DNA of 26,108 nt, taken from a virus. The notes under the pieces are model-generated. The model saw only the letters and a program-made list of their open reading frames with translations. It ran no database searches and was not told the origin of the DNA. The stretch covers positions 1 through 26,108 of the IMG/VR virus record IMGVR_UViG_3300016476_000505; one strand, written 5' to 3'. Each line of letters opens with the position of its first letter. The first letter of the stretch is position 1. The position numbers and the translations under genes were made by a program. Positions 1-26,108 of this stretch are shown one piece after another.

Positions 1-245
1 GATACTTGGACTTCAAACGTTGCCGTGAAAATGAACAAGCGAGTACGTATGCGTAAACCAAGAAGTAAAGCACCACCACTAAAAGAATTAGCGTTGCCCA
101 AAAGCGCAATGCACAAACCACTGCACGAACATGAAACGCTTGATGAGGCTGGGATGAGTAAGGTGGTACACAAAGATGGAACGCCCAAAAATCGCACCAC
201 CAAAGTACGACCCATTGAAGACGGGAAATCGTATCAGACTTGGAT
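1..245. repeat. Terminal direct repeat, copy 1. Same sequence as 25864..26108, implying a 25,863-bp circular, permuted or terminally redundant genome.
   Basis: Read by eye, 'gatacttggacttcaaacgttgccgtgaaaatgaacaagcg...gtatcagacttggat' is present at both window ends with no mismatch noticed. Confidence 0.9.
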
Positions 246-1759: not shown

Positions 1760-3787
1760 ATGCCAATACAATCATTACCGTATTGGGTAGACCAACTGAA
1801 AACAGATGGTAAGTTGGCAGGAACGATTGACGCTTACGAGCGCAACCCTGTTGTGTATCGTGCTGTCAATTTACGATGTGATGCAATCAGTAGTGTACCG
1901 TTCAAAGTCGAACGCAATGGTGAAGAGAGTGATTGGCACTTTACCACACCGTTGCCGTCATTGATTCGTGATACCGAACGGAGTCTACTGTTGACGGGAG
2001 CAGCATTTTGGTTGCGATTAAAGCGTGGCAAAATCCTGTTGGGATTCCGTGTATTGAATCCACTGACAATGCGTGTGCATTACAATCAGCAGGATTATGA
2101 CCCAATGAATCCACTTGCATCATTCCGCTTTGAGCAAGTCGTTGGTGCAAACAAGTGGACGTTCACAAGTGAAGACATTGTCTACTTCCGTGAACCAAGT
2201 TTCACCGATGAAGTAAAAAGTGGTTTAGCACCTGCCGAAGTAGCGCAACAATCAGCGCAACTGAATTACTACTTGGAACGCTTTAACAGTGCGTTCTTCG
2301 AGCATGGTGCGCAACCAATCACTATCATGTCAATGCCATCTGACGTGACACAAGCGGAAGCGCAACGGTTCGAAAACGATTGGCGAAGCAAAGTTACAGG
2401 GCTTATCAATTCATTCCGAACTGTCTTTATCCGTGGGGGTGACATTAAGACCACGGTGATTACACCACCATTGAAAGATTTGATGTTGCCTGAATTGTAT
2501 GACAACACCGTGAAGTCTATTTCAATGGCACTTGGAGTACCACGAACTATGTTGGAGGCGAGTGCTGCCAACTATGCTACTGCTGAATCCGACAGAAAGT
2601 CGTTTTGGCGAGAAACCGTTATTCCACGTATACCACTGTATGAGTACAACATCAACGACCAACTGTTATCTGAATTGGGGTATCGCCTGACATTCCAACC
2701 TGAAGCGTTGGACGTGATGCAAGAAGATGAAAATCAGCGTGCATCGTCATTGAAGTTACTTACTGACGCTGGTGTACCACTGAAAGATGCCATGATTATT
2801 CTTGGTTTCGATTACGAGATTACACCGCAAACAGTGTTGCCACCAAGTGTAAGCGAAGATGTGTACGTTGAAGAACCACCACGGGAAGTAGAAGTCGCAA
2901 GCGTAACAGAGGAAGTGGTTGAATCAGAAGTAGACAAACCACTGCCACGTTCATACAAGTTGTGGCGCAAGAAAGCAGAGCGTCAAATCAATGCTGGAAA
3001 GTCAATGGACTTTGTTTTCGTGAGTGAAGAAATTGATGCTGAAGACCATGCGTGGATTTCGTACAATCTTCAGTTATGTAAAGACTCCCACGATGTCAAG
3101 CATTTGTTTGACTCCCTGAAAGCAAGCATTAGTGAATCAGAGCGACCACTGTATAACGCTGTTGTTGCGACATTGAAGTCCATTGGTGATGACTTTATTG
3201 CCAATGTGATTCCTATGATTTCTTCTGGTTCGGTGCAAGAAGATGACGCACTGTTTGAGGAATTGGAAGTGGTAATGCGACCACTACTGTATCAGCGAGC
3301 GTTTAATCGGTTATCGGAATTGCAAGACCGCTACACCATTGACATTGATGATGCGTTGGAAGCCACGTTGATTAACGAGCAAATTGATGCGTACATGCCA
3401 AAAATGATTAAGGGAATGACAGATACCACCTACGCATTGGTTAAGCAGATTATTGACAAGGCGCGACTTTCTGGTGGGTACACCAACGAGCAACTTGTTG
3501 CATTACTGTCACCTGCATTTGGGAAGCGACGTGCTGAAATGATTGCGGTAACAGAGTACACACGTTCCGCTTCAATGGCTACTACGGTCTATAGTAATTA
3601 CTTGGCTGACTTTGGGGTGAAAACGGTTCGGGTATGGAATACCGAAAACGATGAAATTGTGAAGCGTTGCCCAATCTGTTATCCGTTGAACGGCAAGACA
3701 GATGATGTGTGGAGTGAGAAATACCCTGATGGCGCACCTGCGCACCCACGTTGCCGTTGTGACGTGTCAATAAGGATTGTACGATGA
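1760..3787 (+). CDS. Portal protein (HK97-type) fused in frame to a MuF/SPP1 gp7-like head morphogenesis domain
   Basis: The N-terminal ~400 aa look portal-like ('YERNPVVYRAVNLRCDAISSVPFKV') and sit right after terL. An acidic linker follows. The C-terminus 'WNTENDEIVKRCPICYPLNGK...PAHPRCRCDVS' is the hallmark MuF/gp7 motif. Confidence 0.8.
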   Translation: MPIQSLPYWVDQLKTDGKLAGTIDAYERNPVVYRAVNLRCDAISSVPFKVERNGEESDWHFTTPLPSLIRDTERSLLLTGAAFWLRLKRGKILLGFRVLNPLTMRVHYNQQDYDPMNPLASFRFEQVVGANKWTFTSEDIVYFREPSFTDEVKSGLAPAEVAQQSAQLNYYLERFNSAFFEHGAQPITIMSMPSDVTQAEAQRFENDWRSKVTGLINSFRTVFIRGGDIKTTVITPPLKDLMLPELYDNTVKSISMALGVPRTMLEASAANYATAESDRKSFWRETVIPRIPLYEYNINDQLLSELGYRLTFQPEALDVMQEDENQRASSLKLLTDAGVPLKDAMIILGFDYEITPQTVLPPSVSEDVYVEEPPREVEVASVTEEVVESEVDKPLPRSYKLWRKKAERQINAGKSMDFVFVSEEIDAEDHAWISYNLQLCKDSHDVKHLFDSLKASISESERPLYNAVVATLKSIGDDFIANVIPMISSGSVQEDDALFEELEVVMRPLLYQRAFNRLSELQDRYTIDIDDALEATLINEQIDAYMPKMIKGMTDTTYALVKQIIDKARLSGGYTNEQLVALLSPAFGKRRAEMIAVTEYTRSASMATTVYSNYLADFGVKTVRVWNTENDEIVKRCPICYPLNGKTDDVWSEKYPDGAPAHPRCRCDVSIRIVR

Positions 3788-4242
3788 ATGTTACAGTGAC
3801 TATACCAAAGCACTTGTTGAGCAACCTACGAGGGCTTTCCAAGCATGTTGTAGAACCAACATTGGTAGCAGTGGCAACTGAAACTATGCACAAGTTACAA
3901 TCGCAAAAACCACCACCGCCACCACGGGGCAAGATGCGTTTCAAATCGGAACGTCAACGCAAGTTTGTTATGATGTCTATCCGCAACGGGAGCATTGACG
4001 TTCCATACCGACGTGGTATATCTGCCAATTCACAACGAATGAACCGTTCGTTTCGATTAGTGAAGTCACCACAAAGTGTGTACCTAACTAACACCGCTAC
4101 CTACCATCGGTATGTGATTGGCGACAAACAAGCGGAAATCCATCGTAATCGTTGGAAAACCGCAACCGCAATGGCAAGGGAAGTTATGTCAAGCGGTGTT
4201 GTTGAGCAAGTGTTGAAGACCACCATAGAGAGGATGTTTTGA
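3784..4242 (+). CDS. Hypothetical head-module protein
   Basis: ATGA overlap with the portal gene. 152 aa, basic, with a poly-Pro stretch. No family recognised. Confidence 0.5.
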   Translation: MNVTVTIPKHLLSNLRGLSKHVVEPTLVAVATETMHKLQSQKPPPPPRGKMRFKSERQRKFVMMSIRNGSIDVPYRRGISANSQRMNRSFRLVKSPQSVYLTNTATYHRYVIGDKQAEIHRNRWKTATAMAREVMSSGVVEQVLKTTIERMF

Positions 4243-5045
4243 TGCCAACATACGTACCACCGCAAGAAGTGGCTGATGTTGCAAAGGAAGCGTTGCAGGT
4301 GCGCCAATCCAAACCACCAAGTCAACGTGGTGGAACTACGATTGGGATTGCCCGTGCAAACCAACTTGCCAATCGCAGACCAATCAGCATTGAAACGATT
4401 TATCGCATGGTTTCCTACTTCGACAGACACGAAGTCGATAAACAAGGAAGTACATGGGATGAATATGGCAAGGGAAAACAAGCATGGAATCTTTGGGGTG
4501 GTGATGTTGGCAGAACGTGGGCAAACCGTATTGTTAAGGAGTATGAAATGCAAGACAAGAAGTCATTGGTAGTCGTGGAATCAGAGCATGAGGGTAATCC
4601 GATTTGGTGTGTTGATTACGATGACCCTGAATCCATTGAGCCACTTGCCTGTTTTATGTCGCAAGAAGAAGCCAATGCGTTTAAGTATGGTATGGACTAC
4701 GCAATGGAGTCAATGGGTGAATCAGAAGACATGGTGGAAGTTGAAGTGGAAACCAAAGTCGATATGACGATGGCAGAGCGTGATGCGTTGCCTGATGAAG
4801 ACTTCGCAATTCCGTCAAGCCGTAACTTCCCTGTTGCCGTACCGCAAGACGTTGCAGATGCAGTGTCTTCGTGGGGTAGGTATCGTGGTGATGTGTCATT
4901 TGAAACATTCAAAGAGAACCTGATTCGTATTGCCAAGCGCAAGGGGCGCGACTTCTACGCAATGCTGCCTGAATTGTGGCGCAACGAGTTGGAAGCGCAA
5001 GACATGGTTGCGAAATCATTTGCCCGTAAAATCTTGGGTGCTTGA
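4242..5045 (+). CDS. Hypothetical head-module protein (possible scaffold-related or accessory)
   Basis: TGATG overlap with the previous gene (the track uses TTG 4239). The acidic middle and C-terminal 'LPDEDFAIPSSRNFPVAVPQDVADAVSSWGRY' resemble a motif I recall near phage protease/scaffold genes. Not verified. Confidence 0.5.
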   Translation: MPTYVPPQEVADVAKEALQVRQSKPPSQRGGTTIGIARANQLANRRPISIETIYRMVSYFDRHEVDKQGSTWDEYGKGKQAWNLWGGDVGRTWANRIVKEYEMQDKKSLVVVESEHEGNPIWCVDYDDPESIEPLACFMSQEEANAFKYGMDYAMESMGESEDMVEVEVETKVDMTMAERDALPDEDFAIPSSRNFPVAVPQDVADAVSSWGRYRGDVSFETFKENLIRIAKRKGRDFYAMLPELWRNELEAQDMVAKSFARKILGA

Positions 5046-5077
5046 CATAAAAGTTATAATGATAGTAGGAGGTAATA

Positions 5078-20735: not shown

Positions 20736-21548
20736 CTAGAACATATCGTCTTCGTTGTCTTGGATTGCAATAGGAATGTTCTTTGCTGGTGGTGTTGATT
20801 GTGGTGATTGCGCTGATGGTGCATCGGTGGTACGGGTTTGCAACCGCCACTCCCCGTGGTCTTTCCACGCCTGATGGCACTTTTCAAGCATATCCTTGCC
20901 AACATACAACTTTAGTGCGGTTTCACGGGTAACAGGTTCACCGATTGCCAACACGGGTGGTGTAACAAACGAACCGTACTTGGTTTCCTGATATTCTACA
21001 CGACCATTTTTCTTGGCGCAAGAAATTGGAATCCAAAATGAAAATGGTGGAAGTTTCGCACCCTTTTTCATGGTCTTCTTGGCTTCTGCCATAACGGAAT
21101 CCGCAAACATGGCAAACACGCCCGTGGTCTTCCCTGTCAACGCCTTGCCCGTAAGACCCTTTACCGCAAGAATAACCAACCCGTCATACCCCTGCATAAA
21201 GCAAAGGATTTCGGTATACAGACTTGCACCATCTTCCCATTTATCCAACCACACTTTGCGTTTGCGGTCGTTGGCATCACGGTGGAACGCCTGATACCGC
21301 TTACGAATAGGAATGATGCTCAACTTTTCAGTCACATACCCGTCACCGTCTTGGAAGCGTTGCACTTTTGTCCACGGTGCGCCCAATGGAGTGTCGAACT
21401 CGTTCTCTGACGTGTAGAAGTGTCCTGCTGTGCCTGCCTGCTTAACCCCGTTGAACCACCAAATACGTGGATAACCCTGATACCCTACCTGCTCGTCGTC
21501 TTGGAAGTCGAAATCGTTCAACCCGTTGAAATCTTCGTTGTATGTCAT
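20736..21548 (-). CDS. Hypothetical protein, possibly ssDNA-binding (SSB-like acidic C-terminal tip)
   Basis: RBS 'aaggagtaatgcaATG'. A Pro/Ser/Thr/Gln-rich linker is followed by the terminal '...QDNEDDMF'. The fold was not recognised. Confidence 0.35.
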   Translation of the reverse strand: MTYNEDFNGLNDFDFQDDEQVGYQGYPRIWWFNGVKQAGTAGHFYTSENEFDTPLGAPWTKVQRFQDGDGYVTEKLSIIPIRKRYQAFHRDANDRKRKVWLDKWEDGASLYTEILCFMQGYDGLVILAVKGLTGKALTGKTTGVFAMFADSVMAEAKKTMKKGAKLPPFSFWIPISCAKKNGRVEYQETKYGSFVTPPVLAIGEPVTRETALKLYVGKDMLEKCHQAWKDHGEWRLQTRTTDAPSAQSPQSTPPAKNIPIAIQDNEDDMF

Positions 21549-21574: not shown

Positions 21575-21826
21575 TTACTGTTGCTTGGCTGATTCTTCTG
21601 CTTGGGCTTTTTCCAACATGGTTTCGGTGATTGCACGTTGCGCCTGTTGACGTTCGTACTCTGTTGCGCTATCCAACAGCAGATTAGTAATCAGTTGCCC
21701 GATTGTTACTGCATGTCCCTTAAGCGACATTGACGAAATGCGTTGGCGCATAATCATGTGCGCTTCTGACGAAAGCAGCATATACGTTGGAACTTGCTTA
21801 AGGCGGTCTAGGTTCTTTCTTGCCAT
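21575..21826 (-). CDS. Hypothetical protein, possible ribbon-helix-helix DNA-binding protein
   Basis: RBS 'aaggagtagccaccATG'. 'KQVPTYMLLSSEAHMIMRQRIS...AVTIGQLITNLL' fits a strand-helix-helix pattern. The C-terminus is a Gln/Glu-rich helix. Confidence 0.3.
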   Translation of the reverse strand: MARKNLDRLKQVPTYMLLSSEAHMIMRQRISSMSLKGHAVTIGQLITNLLLDSATEYERQQAQRAITETMLEKAQAEESAKQQ

Positions 21827-23093: not shown

Positions 23094-23151
23094 CACAAAC
23101 TCTCTTTCACTCTCATTGTTAGCGTAGGATAGATTTCTATCCTTACATGTA

Positions 23152-23180
23152 ATTATACATCTATTCTACGATACTGTCAA
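23152..23180 (-). promoter_or_regulatory. Early leftward promoter with perfect sigma70 consensus
   Basis: The minus strand reads TTGACA (23180..23175), a 17-nt spacer, then TATAAT (23157..23152). An AT-rich UP-like stretch lies upstream. A 7-bp hairpin, aggatag/ctatcct (23126..23143), lies at the predicted 5' end of the transcript. Confidence 0.75.
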
Positions 23181-23293
23181 TAGGATTGTTGCAATTTGTT
23201 TTACGAATATTGAAATCCGCGCGCCCCGCGACCGCCGACCGAACCGCGAACGTCGTCTAGCAGTAGGCAGCACTCTTTCTGCTACCATGAAGT

Positions 23294-23569
23294 GAATTAA
23301 GGGCTTACTTAATTCCATTATTTGGCTTCCTATTGCGGTAAATGACACTTAATTAGGGAATTAAGGGTGCAATTAAATCAGATTTATTTTCACAACTATT
23401 GTATATACACCAATGTAAAACATTATTTTTAAAATTACGATTCATTACTATATTGCCTTAATTCCTTAATTAAGATAGTAATATAAGTGATTAGGAAGCC
23501 AAATACCGCAATTAAGGGTTGAATTAAGATTGGGAATTAAGGCTTAATCCAATGAAGCCCCTTAATCCC
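23294..23569. repeat. Array of AATTAAG/CTTAATT sites: 10 exact and 3 degenerate copies in both orientations
   Basis: Exact AATTAAG starts at 23295, 23359, 23468, 23510, 23522 and 23535. Exact CTTAATT starts at 23308, 23348, 23457 and 23465. Degenerate copies are at 23371, 23543 and 23561. The array includes the 10-bp palindrome CTTAATTAAG at 23465..23474. Confidence 0.85.
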
Positions 23570-23631: not shown

Positions 23632-23785
23632 TTGACATAATAATTATTCATTACAGCGGTTTTATTATGTCAATCAAAAATCATGATTATGTCAACTAAA
23701 ACCATTTTATGTCAAGCAGATTTCGTATTATGTCAAGCAAAGTGGCACTTTTTATTATGTAAATCTGTATCTGTGATTATGTCAA
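23632..23785. repeat. Iteron array: TTATGTCAA with 5 exact direct copies, 1 degenerate direct copy and 1 exact inverted copy
   Basis: The inverted TTGACATAA is at 23632..23640. Direct copies start at 23665, 23687, 23707, 23728, 23755 (TTATGTAAA) and 23777. Start-to-start spacings are 22, 20, 21, 27 and 22 nt. Confidence 0.9.
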
Positions 23786-23807
23786 CACTTGCACTACAGG
23801 GTATAAT
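23779..23807 (+). promoter_or_regulatory. Putative rightward (late/lysis) promoter
   Basis: ATGTCA (4/6 match to TTGACA, inside the last iteron), a 17-nt spacer, then perfect TATAAT (23802..23807). It lies about 90 nt upstream of the endolysin gene. Confidence 0.5.
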
Positions 23808-23897
23808 AAGAGTAGAGGATAGTGTAAACCCCACGTACATTTCCTCAATGTAGTGGTCTACCACTGATGGATGGTTCGAAGACTAGTACCGTGACAC

Positions 23898-24908: not shown

Positions 24909-25919
24909 ATGCCACCACAAAGAACCCACAACAAGTGGAGATTCATTGTGCGTGAAAATGGAAGTAGGAAGTGGAAGTCTTTTGACGACTATGAAACCTG
25001 CTACGCTGAATGGGTTGCGTACCACAACCGCAACAAAGCAACATCACCCACATCAGTAGAAGTTAATTACATTGAACAGTATACTGATGTGGGAACGTTG
25101 TGGGATTATGCCACAAGTAATCCTAGCGTCAAGCGAAAAGACATACCATTTGTTACATTCCCTGCCAATGAATCGTTCGCAATCGTATTCCTCTCTGACT
25201 TGCACATTGGCAACGCCGCAACTGACTATGAGAATCTGCGGCGTGATGCTGAAATCATTCGCACTACTGACAATATGTATGCGTTCTTTCATGGTGATGG
25301 AATTGATAATTGGATTGTAGGAAAGTTACAATCTTTGCAACGAGGGCAATCCATACCGTTCGACAGCGAGATGGCATTGTTCCAAGCGTGGATTACGACC
25401 ATACAACCAAAACTAATAGGTGTAGTAGCAGGGAATCACGATAATTGGACAAAGAAGATGGCAGGGATTGATTACCTAAAGCATATCAGTCCACCATTTG
25501 CCATGTACGATGCAAACGAAGTGATATTTCGGCTGCTTTGGGGAAGTAACAGTAAGACCATTGCCGTTCGTCATAAGTGGCGTGGTACATCAATCCTGAA
25601 CCCTACGCATGGTATGGAGCGTGCAAGTAAGGATATTGATGCGGACATATACGTTGGCGGACATACCCATATCGGTACACTATTCCGTGACTTCGTGGTA
25701 CGTCAACGTGACCGTATTGCAGTGCTGACAGGTACGTACAAAGTGGTTGATTCCTATGGTGATGAATTAGGATTGCCACCACCGCAACATAGTGGGTGTG
25801 GTGCAATCGTCTTTGACCCTGATGGTTCAATGACGGTGATGCGCAACCTGACAGAAGCAGCACGATACTTGGACTTCAAACGTTGCCGTGAAAATGAACA
25901 AGCGAGTACGTATGCGTAA
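24909..25919 (+). CDS. Calcineurin-like metallophosphoesterase with an AP2-like N-terminal extension
   Basis: All metallophosphoesterase (MPE) motifs are present: 'SDLHIG' (DxH), 'HGDGID' (GDxxD), 'AGNHDNW' (GNHD), 'VRHKW' and 'GGHTH' (GHxH). The N-terminal 'NKWRFIVRENGSRKWKSFDDYETCYAEWVAYH' resembles the AP2/integrase-type DNA-binding pattern. The 3' end overlaps the terS start in circular coordinates. Confidence 0.8.
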   Translation: MPPQRTHNKWRFIVRENGSRKWKSFDDYETCYAEWVAYHNRNKATSPTSVEVNYIEQYTDVGTLWDYATSNPSVKRKDIPFVTFPANESFAIVFLSDLHIGNAATDYENLRRDAEIIRTTDNMYAFFHGDGIDNWIVGKLQSLQRGQSIPFDSEMALFQAWITTIQPKLIGVVAGNHDNWTKKMAGIDYLKHISPPFAMYDANEVIFRLLWGSNSKTIAVRHKWRGTSILNPTHGMERASKDIDADIYVGGHTHIGTLFRDFVVRQRDRIAVLTGTYKVVDSYGDELGLPPPQHSGCGAIVFDPDGSMTVMRNLTEAARYLDFKRCRENEQASTYA

Positions 25920-26108
25920 ACCAAGAAGTAAAGCACCACCACTAAAAGAATTAGCGTTGCCCAAAAGCGCAATGCACAAACCACTGCACGAACATGAAAC
26001 GCTTGATGAGGCTGGGATGAGTAAGGTGGTACACAAAGATGGAACGCCCAAAAATCGCACCACCAAAGTACGACCCATTGAAGACGGGAAATCGTATCAG
26101 ACTTGGAT
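25864..26108. repeat. Terminal direct repeat, copy 2. It contains a second, truncated image of the terS 5' end from 25888.
   Basis: Same sequence as 1..245. The terS ATG at 25 corresponds to 25888. Confidence 0.9.

Follow-up and report, generated by a model that had tools for sequence, protein, structure and literature searches.

Does a cluster of short repeats in the control region of a phage genome belong to the replication origin, or does it control the onset of late transcription? This question is raised by a stretch of 26,108 bp (IMG/VR record IMGVR_UViG_3300016476_000505; the whole stretch is referred to below as the window), in which copies of the 9-mer TTATGTCAA form an array. Both readings were put forward in the preliminary description of the sequence. 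The operator for an early-to-late switch is the better supported of the two, on the evidence that the array abuts the core of the late promoter, that the same word is found in the promoter of the capsid gene and that relatives carry DnaA boxes in the equivalent place. Our tentative interpretation is that the array regulates the late promoter in cis, is specific to this lineage and is bound by a putative sequence-specific protein; we rate this explanation, the best one found, at somewhat below an even chance.

Bases 1–245 of the window are identical to bases 25864–26108, and the phage therefore has a circular (or circularly permuted) genome of 25,863 bp. Other assemblies of this phage are 25,863 and 26,004 bp in length, and the TerS gene runs across the circle junction. 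The genome is of the siphovirus type, in which an 800-bp control region separates a single early operon from a single, divergent late one. The early operon is located on the minus strand (23096 to 15578) and encodes five small domainless proteins, a prim-pol/D5_N/SF3 primase-helicase, a VRR-NUC nuclease, a dCTP deaminase and ThyX. The late operon, 17.5 kb in length, is located on the plus strand, from 23898 round the circle to 15523; its first gene encodes an endolysin, and its other products are two small proteins, a metallophosphoesterase, TerS, TerL, portal, capsid and tail proteins. Several additional elements of the control region can be noted. A perfect palindrome, GGATAGA-nn-TCTATCC, is located at the start of the early transcript (23127–23142), and a half-site, AGGATAG (23816–23822), lies 8 nt past the late −10 box, the distance at the early promoter being equal; these sequences could act as an operator or as a 5′ RNA hairpin. 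Between the early promoter and the origin-like module described below, there is a 32-nt G+C-rich tract, CCGCGCGCCCCGCGACCGCCGACCGAACCGCG (23217–23248), in A+T-rich surroundings. Scans of the whole window against Rfam and for tRNAs yielded no matches. A 56-aa ORF at 23683–23853 was rejected as coding content; it has no ribosome-binding site and is not called in any assembly.

The seven copies of the 9-mer reported at 23632–23785, six exact and one with a single mismatch, were confirmed (Table 1), as were three subtypes of flanking sequence, which follow one another in the order a-b-c-c-a-b. Three other details needed correction. The start-to-start distances of the direct copies R1–R6 are 22, 20, 21, 27 and 22 nt, and the suggestion that these copies lie on one face of the helix, computed at 10.5 bp per turn, holds for R1–R4 (phases 0, 0.1, 0 and 0 turns) but not for R5 and R6, which are in phase with each other and offset from R1–R4 by about 0.6 turn. 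The TTGACA hexamer ascribed to the opposite strand of every copy is present in six of the seven, R5 having TTTACA instead. Finally, the array, placed between the divergent promoters, is in fact off-centre: it abuts the rightward promoter, spanning approximately −29 to −182 relative to the inferred late start site, and some 450 bp separate it from the leftward promoter. The conserved part of each repeat unit is 9–11 bp only.

The number of copies is far from what would be expected by chance. The 800-bp control region contains seven matches with at most one mismatch, compared with 0.49 expected from block shuffles, and none of 2000 shuffles reached seven. Genome-wide, TTATGTCAA and the neighbouring word AATTAAGG are the two most clustered k-mers. 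The array region is identical in five independent metagenome assemblies of the same phage and is therefore no assembly artefact, and no variation among the five was found anywhere in the control region. The array is real and clearly exceeds chance, and it is an ordinary kind of element, a predicted phased protein-binding repeat.

Table 1. Features of the control region and related sites in the window, with the repeat words of the origin-like modules in the window and in related phages
Feature	Position	Strand	Description
First early gene, 141 aa	22668..23093	−	weak candidate binder
Early promoter	23152..23180	−	perfect TTGACA-17-TATAAT; same in relatives
Origin-like module, separate from the array	23295..23569		12 CTTAAT/AATTAAGG words in both orientations
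R0, inverted copy	23632..23640	−	exact; plus strand reads TTGACATAA; about −178 from the inferred late start site
R1–R4, four direct copies	23665..23736 (starts 23665, 23687, 23707, 23728)	+	exact TTATGTCAA
Leftward sigma-70-like promoter match	23686..23715	−	TTGACA of R3, 18 nt, TG-n-CATAAT of R2; 11/12
R5	23755..23763	+	one mismatch, TTATGTAAA
R6	23777..23785	+	exact TTATGTCAA; late promoter core begins after a 3-nt gap
Late promoter core (candidate)	23789..23819	+	TTGCAC (23789–94), 7 nt, TATAAT (23802–07), 4 nt, GTAGAGGA (23812–19)
Solitary 9-mer copy	4184..4192	+	TTATGTCAAGC, inside a 152-aa gene
Second late-type promoter (candidate)	5042..5072	+	before the capsid gene (ATG 5078)
Origin-module word, window			AATTAAGG
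Origin-module word, L278			GATGGAGG
Origin-module word, L295			AATGGAAA
Origin-module word, L284			AGTGGAGA
Origin-module word, L299			CCTCAATC
Origin-module word, L285			CCTCAAGA
Origin-module word, L296			AAATGGGAG

Relatives for comparison were not easy to find. INPHARED contained no close relatives, searches of IMG/VR with the primase-helicase and TerL as single queries gave nothing useful, and a word-indexed primase search reached identities of 34% at best. The sole IMG/VR primase match, L001, was discarded as a comparator; its genome layout is different and uninformative. Relatives were reached via the 270-aa early protein, with homologues of 40–58% identity, and then via an endolysin profile, which revealed at least 118 related contigs in IMG/VR. 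Contigs with homologues of the 270-aa protein represent syntenic phages, whose late proteins are 55–65% and primase-helicases about 32–45% identical to those of the window. The same control region was found in L278/L295, L284/L300–302, L299, L285–288, L296/L298, L303 and L342. As for the 270-aa protein itself (20736–21548, minus strand), its gene immediately precedes that of the primase-helicase, and it contains no recognised domain. No other early protein of the group is as widely conserved: it is found in many contigs, including phages that have a Toprim/DnaB-type primase-helicase instead (L291).

The position of the array relative to the late promoter (P_late) is the first piece of evidence for a role in transcription, R6 being its immediate upstream neighbour. 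P_late has a perfect −10 box and no good −35 box at the normal distance. In all control regions of relatives examined (L278, L284, L285, L296, L299, L303 and L342), the core reads TTGACA-N7(6)-TATAAT-N4-GTAG. A wider consensus, TTGACA-N7(6)-TA(T/C)AAT-N4-GTAG(A)GGA, precedes both the first late gene and the capsid gene, and the core was also found in L286 and at more distant IMG/VR loci, e.g., L319, L343, L345, L375 and L378. The −35-like hexamer of these late promoters is about one helical turn nearer to the −10 box than in normal sigma-70 promoters, whereas the early promoters of the same phages keep the 17-nt spacer. We know of no described promoter class with the TTGACA-N7-TATAAT geometry.

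The second piece of evidence is the recurrence of the word at another promoter of the same class. Two exact copies of the 9-mer are located outside the array, at 4184 (plus strand) and 5042 (minus strand), and each is part of an 11-mer, TTATGTCAAGC, that represents the R3/R4 subtype; base composition predicts about 0.016 occurrences of this 11-mer. At 5042, the word provides the upstream element of the capsid-gene core, GCTTGACATAA-aagt-TATAAT-gata-GTAGGAGG, in which GCTTGACATAA, identical to the c-subtype word of the array, supplies TTGACA, followed by 7 nt, TATAAT, 4 nt and GTAGGAGG. The same element is located at the same place, before the capsid gene, in the relative L286. A relaxed core pattern is matched at two sites in the 25.9-kb genome (23789 and 5042) against approximately 0.6 expected by chance, and both sites are late-sense and directly upstream of late genes. 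Both promoters are candidate assignments made from sequence and conservation, with inferred start sites. The geometry of the 9-mer differs between them: it is located at about −33 and reversed at P_late, and at about −21 and forward at the 5042 promoter. The 4184 copy lies 858 bp upstream of the 5042 copy and is inverted relative to it, and the pair flanks a 268-aa gene.

When the control regions of the relatives were compared, the 9-mer was found to be enriched in that of L295 (seven copies observed, 0.42 expected), in L278 (six copies) and in the L284 group (three copies, P = 0.002). Enrichment in L342 (two copies) is marginal, and no copy is present in L285, L296 and L303. The regular 21-bp array exists in the window lineage alone. 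The copy number, direction, spacing and position of the 9-mer vary by lineage; some of the relatives' copies are located between the origin-like module and P_late, and some are located within the AT-rich centre of the module. The copies nearest to P_late in L278 and L295 end in C or G where a −10 box requires T, yet they preserve the 9-mer, which makes this word, and not a −10 box, the unit under conservation.

The main alternative is that the array is an element of the replication origin, that is, iterons or accessory sites for the C-terminal domain of the primase-helicase or for another initiator, acting together with an AT-rich module in the manner of P4 ori and crr. We consider this unlikely, although it retains some weight. 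The phage encodes a prim-pol/D5_N/SF3 helicase, the nearest solved relative of which is PriRep5 of SaPI5 (7OLA, E = 8e-27), and such primase-helicases bind iterons via a C-terminal winged helix (PMC9371898, PMC2777425). The array, with a period of about 21 bp that is typical of iterons, is located only 60 bp from the origin-like module, and the presence of 9-mer copies inside the AT-rich centre of this module in L278, L295 and L284 would suit a replication role and argues against the late-promoter reading. P4 has a distant second iteron cluster, which the outlying copies at 4184 and 5042 recall.

It is the neighbouring module, however, that has the anatomy of an origin. SaPI origins contain six to twelve iterons of 5–6 nt, half on each side of an AT-rich region and in opposite directions, and the helicase binds them through its C-terminal winged helix (PMC9371898). 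The CTTAAT module, located between the early promoter and the array, reproduces this layout: its words flank a centre (23380–23455) of 80% A+T, and a large imperfect palindrome is present (DNA fold z = −4.4). The array does not have such a layout; its six direct copies are all located to the right of the single inverted one, and the DNA between them contains no such AT-rich centre. Since the SaPI-type anatomy matches the CTTAAT words, the module is a better origin candidate than the array. Its layout is kept in every related lineage, while its word differs in each (Table 1), and in L296, as in SaPIs, it directly follows the primase-helicase gene. A lineage-specific word is the behaviour expected of an initiator with its iterons. 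In addition, an island GGCTTCCTA(ATCAC) can be noted in the arms of the module (23324–23332 and 23492–23500), which is kept in L278 and L284 despite their differing repeat words.

The distribution of the 9-mer also speaks against iterons of the primase-helicase. The word does not covary with the initiator: TTGACATAA is constant among the window, L278, L295 and L284, whose module words all differ and where primase-helicases are 35–45% identical. Nor does it occur wherever the replicon does, as L285 and L296 carry the enzyme and the origin module with no 9-mer; the array is likewise absent from L303. The match of the primase-helicase to the winged-helix family PF03288 is below threshold (E = 0.0016), and its C-terminal 202 residues have no match among PDB sequences, including the P4 alpha domain. 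The origin-iteron reading of the preliminary description is therefore disfavoured, and the presence/absence pattern of the motif is, on sequence grounds, that of an accessory regulatory site rather than a core origin element. The array also differs from plasmid iterons of the Rep_3/RepA type, in which a whole unit of 17–22 bp is conserved and is accompanied by a rep gene, DnaA boxes and an AT-rich stretch: only 9–11 bp are conserved in each unit, and the window contains neither a Rep_3-type gene nor DnaA boxes of this kind.

The third piece of evidence for the late-promoter reading comes from sister phages, in which the space occupied by the array holds sites of another factor. Perfect DnaA boxes are located upstream of P_late in L296/L298 (three boxes; 3420–3450 and 1671–1701, respectively) and in L342 (four boxes; 3349–3421), that is, where the 9-mer is missing or sparse. 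Three perfect DnaA boxes (179–220, minus strand), together with TGTGGAAAA, adjoin the capsid promoter of L286; as the origin-like module is about 7 kb away, these boxes belong to the promoter and not to the origin. This suggests that the sister phages may use host DnaA as a regulator of late transcription. The array itself is not a cluster of DnaA boxes. Although the box and the 9-mer both start with TTAT and occupy equivalent places upstream of the same type of promoter, TTATGTCAA departs from TTATNCACA at three specified positions, in the CACA half, where a box would be allowed one or two mismatches at most. The window has no DnaA-box cluster, with six matches observed against 9.5 expected, and L342 carries boxes and 9-mer copies side by side, which indicates that they are distinct sites.

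Another explanation is that the array binds the RNA polymerase of the host, its copies either starting leftward transcription across the origin module, for activation or priming, or sequestering polymerase beside the late promoter. Read leftward, each repeat is TTGACATAAT, a −35 hexamer fused to an extended −10-like TGnCATAAT, with TTGACA in six of the seven copies and CATAAT in five; R3 and R2 together give an 11/12 promoter match with TG. The persistence of the word in different lineages would also be accounted for if a universal host enzyme recognised it. In the AT-rich centre of the module, the L284 group has a pair of copies, spaced by 19 bp, that makes up a canonical TTGACA-N17-CATAAT promoter. 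This pair, seen in L284, L300 and L301, is located about 270–310 nt upstream of the endolysin gene and could, as far as its sequence goes, produce an origin-activating or priming transcript. Nevertheless, we regard the polymerase reading as improbable. Tandem sigma-70 promoters would need spacers of 16–18 bp, and only R3/R2 qualify, the other spacers being 19, 20, 20 and 25 nt. The copies nearest to P_late in L278 and L295 retain the 9-mer without the T required by a −10 box, and the direction of the word relative to the origin module and P_late varies among lineages.

The array might also have no sequence-specific function: it would be a recent tandem duplication of the promoter-proximal segment that has persisted by chance or serves only as upstream DNA that is bent and A+T-rich. 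Growth by duplication is evident from the a-b-c-c-a-b order and from a 37-nt duplication with 78% identity (23660–23696 and 23750–23786), and the regular array is confined to the window lineage. Arrays in which any 9-mer recurs about every 21 bp abound in databases: triple TTATGTCAA arrays with periods of 19–25 bp gave 34 genome matches and more than 120 metagenome matches, and composition-matched control 9-mers gave three and six viral matches compared with eight for TTATGTCAA. However, the spacers have diverged while the 9–11-mer is exact, the word is enriched in three other lineages, the exact 11-mer recurs at two distant sites and the region is identical in five samples, which makes a functionless array highly improbable. 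The database matches are mostly unrelated tandem repeats in unrelated contexts and, with control words about as frequent, were rejected as evidence of a conserved binder. Among them, 11 copies of TTATGT[CAT]AAC with variable spacers can be noted upstream of feoA in Lachnospiraceae (L127, 5080–5390, minus strand), as well as conserved three-copy arrays of the same word, likewise unrelated, in Pseudoalteromonas chromosomes (L130, L133 and L145). An array in L262, located beside a homologue of the 336-aa protein, led nowhere. Finally, it is extremely improbable that the array is a packaging (pac/cos) site or a partition site, recognised by the small terminase or by a ParB/ParR-like protein. Such sites typically contain repeat arrays, and the array heads the operon encoding TerS and TerL. 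However, terS itself follows only 2 kb further downstream, the early and late genes examined included no partition genes, and the motif is missing from relatives with terminases 57–65% identical.

Arrangements of this kind have precedents. RinA, LtrC, ArpU and Alt of TP901-1 are late activators of Gram-positive phages that need short direct repeats upstream of the late-operon promoter (PMC3753634). The present array resembles these sites in consisting of short direct repeats upstream of the promoter for packaging, morphogenesis and lysis genes. It differs in having seven copies of 9–11 nt with a period of about 21 bp instead of three to four copies of about 7 nt; their repeats are located just after the activator gene and next to terS, while here the promoter heads the entire late operon with the endolysin gene first. 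Domain scans detected no homologues of RinA, Ltr or ArpU in the window.

In the small virulent phage phi29, divergent early and late promoters share one control region, with p4 sites located between A2b/A2c and A3, and the late promoter lacks a normal −35 box and has several regulator sites upstream. The divergent promoters and the regulator sites before a late promoter without a normal −35 box are common to both phages. In contrast, p4 sites are inverted repeats, phi29 replicates from its ends by protein priming, and no p4 or p6 homologue was found in the genome studied here. Activators of the PhoB/OmpR type use tandem sites with a period of about 20–22 bp per dimer, the proximal site replacing the −35 box. 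The array shares with them the period and the proximal site in the place of the −35 box, and its TGTCA core resembles a pho-box half-site; unlike them, it has one clear half-site per 21 bp, matches the pho box at 5/7 positions and is not accompanied by an encoded response regulator. SaPI/P4-type origins are similar in the encoded SF3 primase-helicase and in the short repeats close to an AT-rich region, but the features described for them belong to the adjacent CTTAAT module and not to the array (PMC9371898).

As to the protein that would read the 9-mer, the earlier view that no binder can be assigned from sequence still stands: the early proteins have no recognisable DNA-binding domain, and the first five of them have no matches in Pfam, PHROG or NCBIfam. 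The 83-aa protein (21575..21826), singled out previously as a candidate, has no homologue in any relative carrying the motif, and nothing supports its by-eye reading as a ribbon-helix-helix protein. Both it and the 141-aa protein are orphans in libraries of 5.8 billion and 1.84 billion proteins. Single-sequence AlphaFold models of the 141-aa and 83-aa proteins are of low confidence (pLDDT of 52 and 59, respectively), and Foldseek found no fold match for these unreliable models; a profile of the 141-aa family also had no matches in Pfam and PDB. Homologues of the 141-aa protein are present in L278, L295 and L284, the motif lineages that could be checked, and none is present in L285, where the motif is absent; this association covers four to five lineages only. 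The 141-aa protein is thus a weak candidate, judged by co-occurrence, and the only one with any support. A host factor as the binder is equally possible.

Taken together, the late-promoter reading is preferred because the 9-mer does not covary with the primase-helicase, is dispensable in lineages with the same replicon and abuts the late core, and also because the word is built into a second late promoter and its space holds sites of another factor in sister phages. A putative protein, either a phage early protein or a host factor, would bind the 9–11-bp word. It would do so at the promoter-proximal copy, centred at about −33, directly upstream of TTGCAC-N7-TATAAT, and cooperative binding to the phased upstream copies would set the firing time of the 17.5-kb late operon. 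The same protein would act at the capsid-gene promoter, where the word overlaps the upstream element. As regards the sign of regulation, we lean towards activation, because the late core has no −35 box at the normal distance and the early promoter has a perfect consensus. The array may instead mediate repression that is later relieved, e.g., when replicating genomes titrate the repressor. A site that differs in position and direction between the two promoters does not fit easily with a simple activator and would also suit a repressor.

A bolder version of the late-promoter reading can be formulated, which we consider quite unlikely. The late promoters of the family, with TTGACA one helical turn too near to the −10 box (N7 in place of N17), would be unusable by the unmodified host polymerase, and each lineage would plug in a docking array, consisting either of host DnaA boxes or of TTATGTCAA copies bound by the 141-aa orphan family. 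DnaA or the new factor would then be a timer coupling late transcription to the stage of infection or to genome copy number.

The interest of the locus lies in the context of the array, namely, the promoter geometry and the exchange of DnaA boxes and 9-mers, rather than in the array itself. The origin-like module provides a clean prediction of where the origin is located. If the late-promoter reading is true, a very simple phage with two operons, belonging to a family not characterised before, has its switch point at the array. This family seems to swap sets of upstream factor sites before one conserved, oddly built late promoter, and it would provide a natural comparative system for the timing of late transcription in small phages that have no polymerase or sigma factor of their own.
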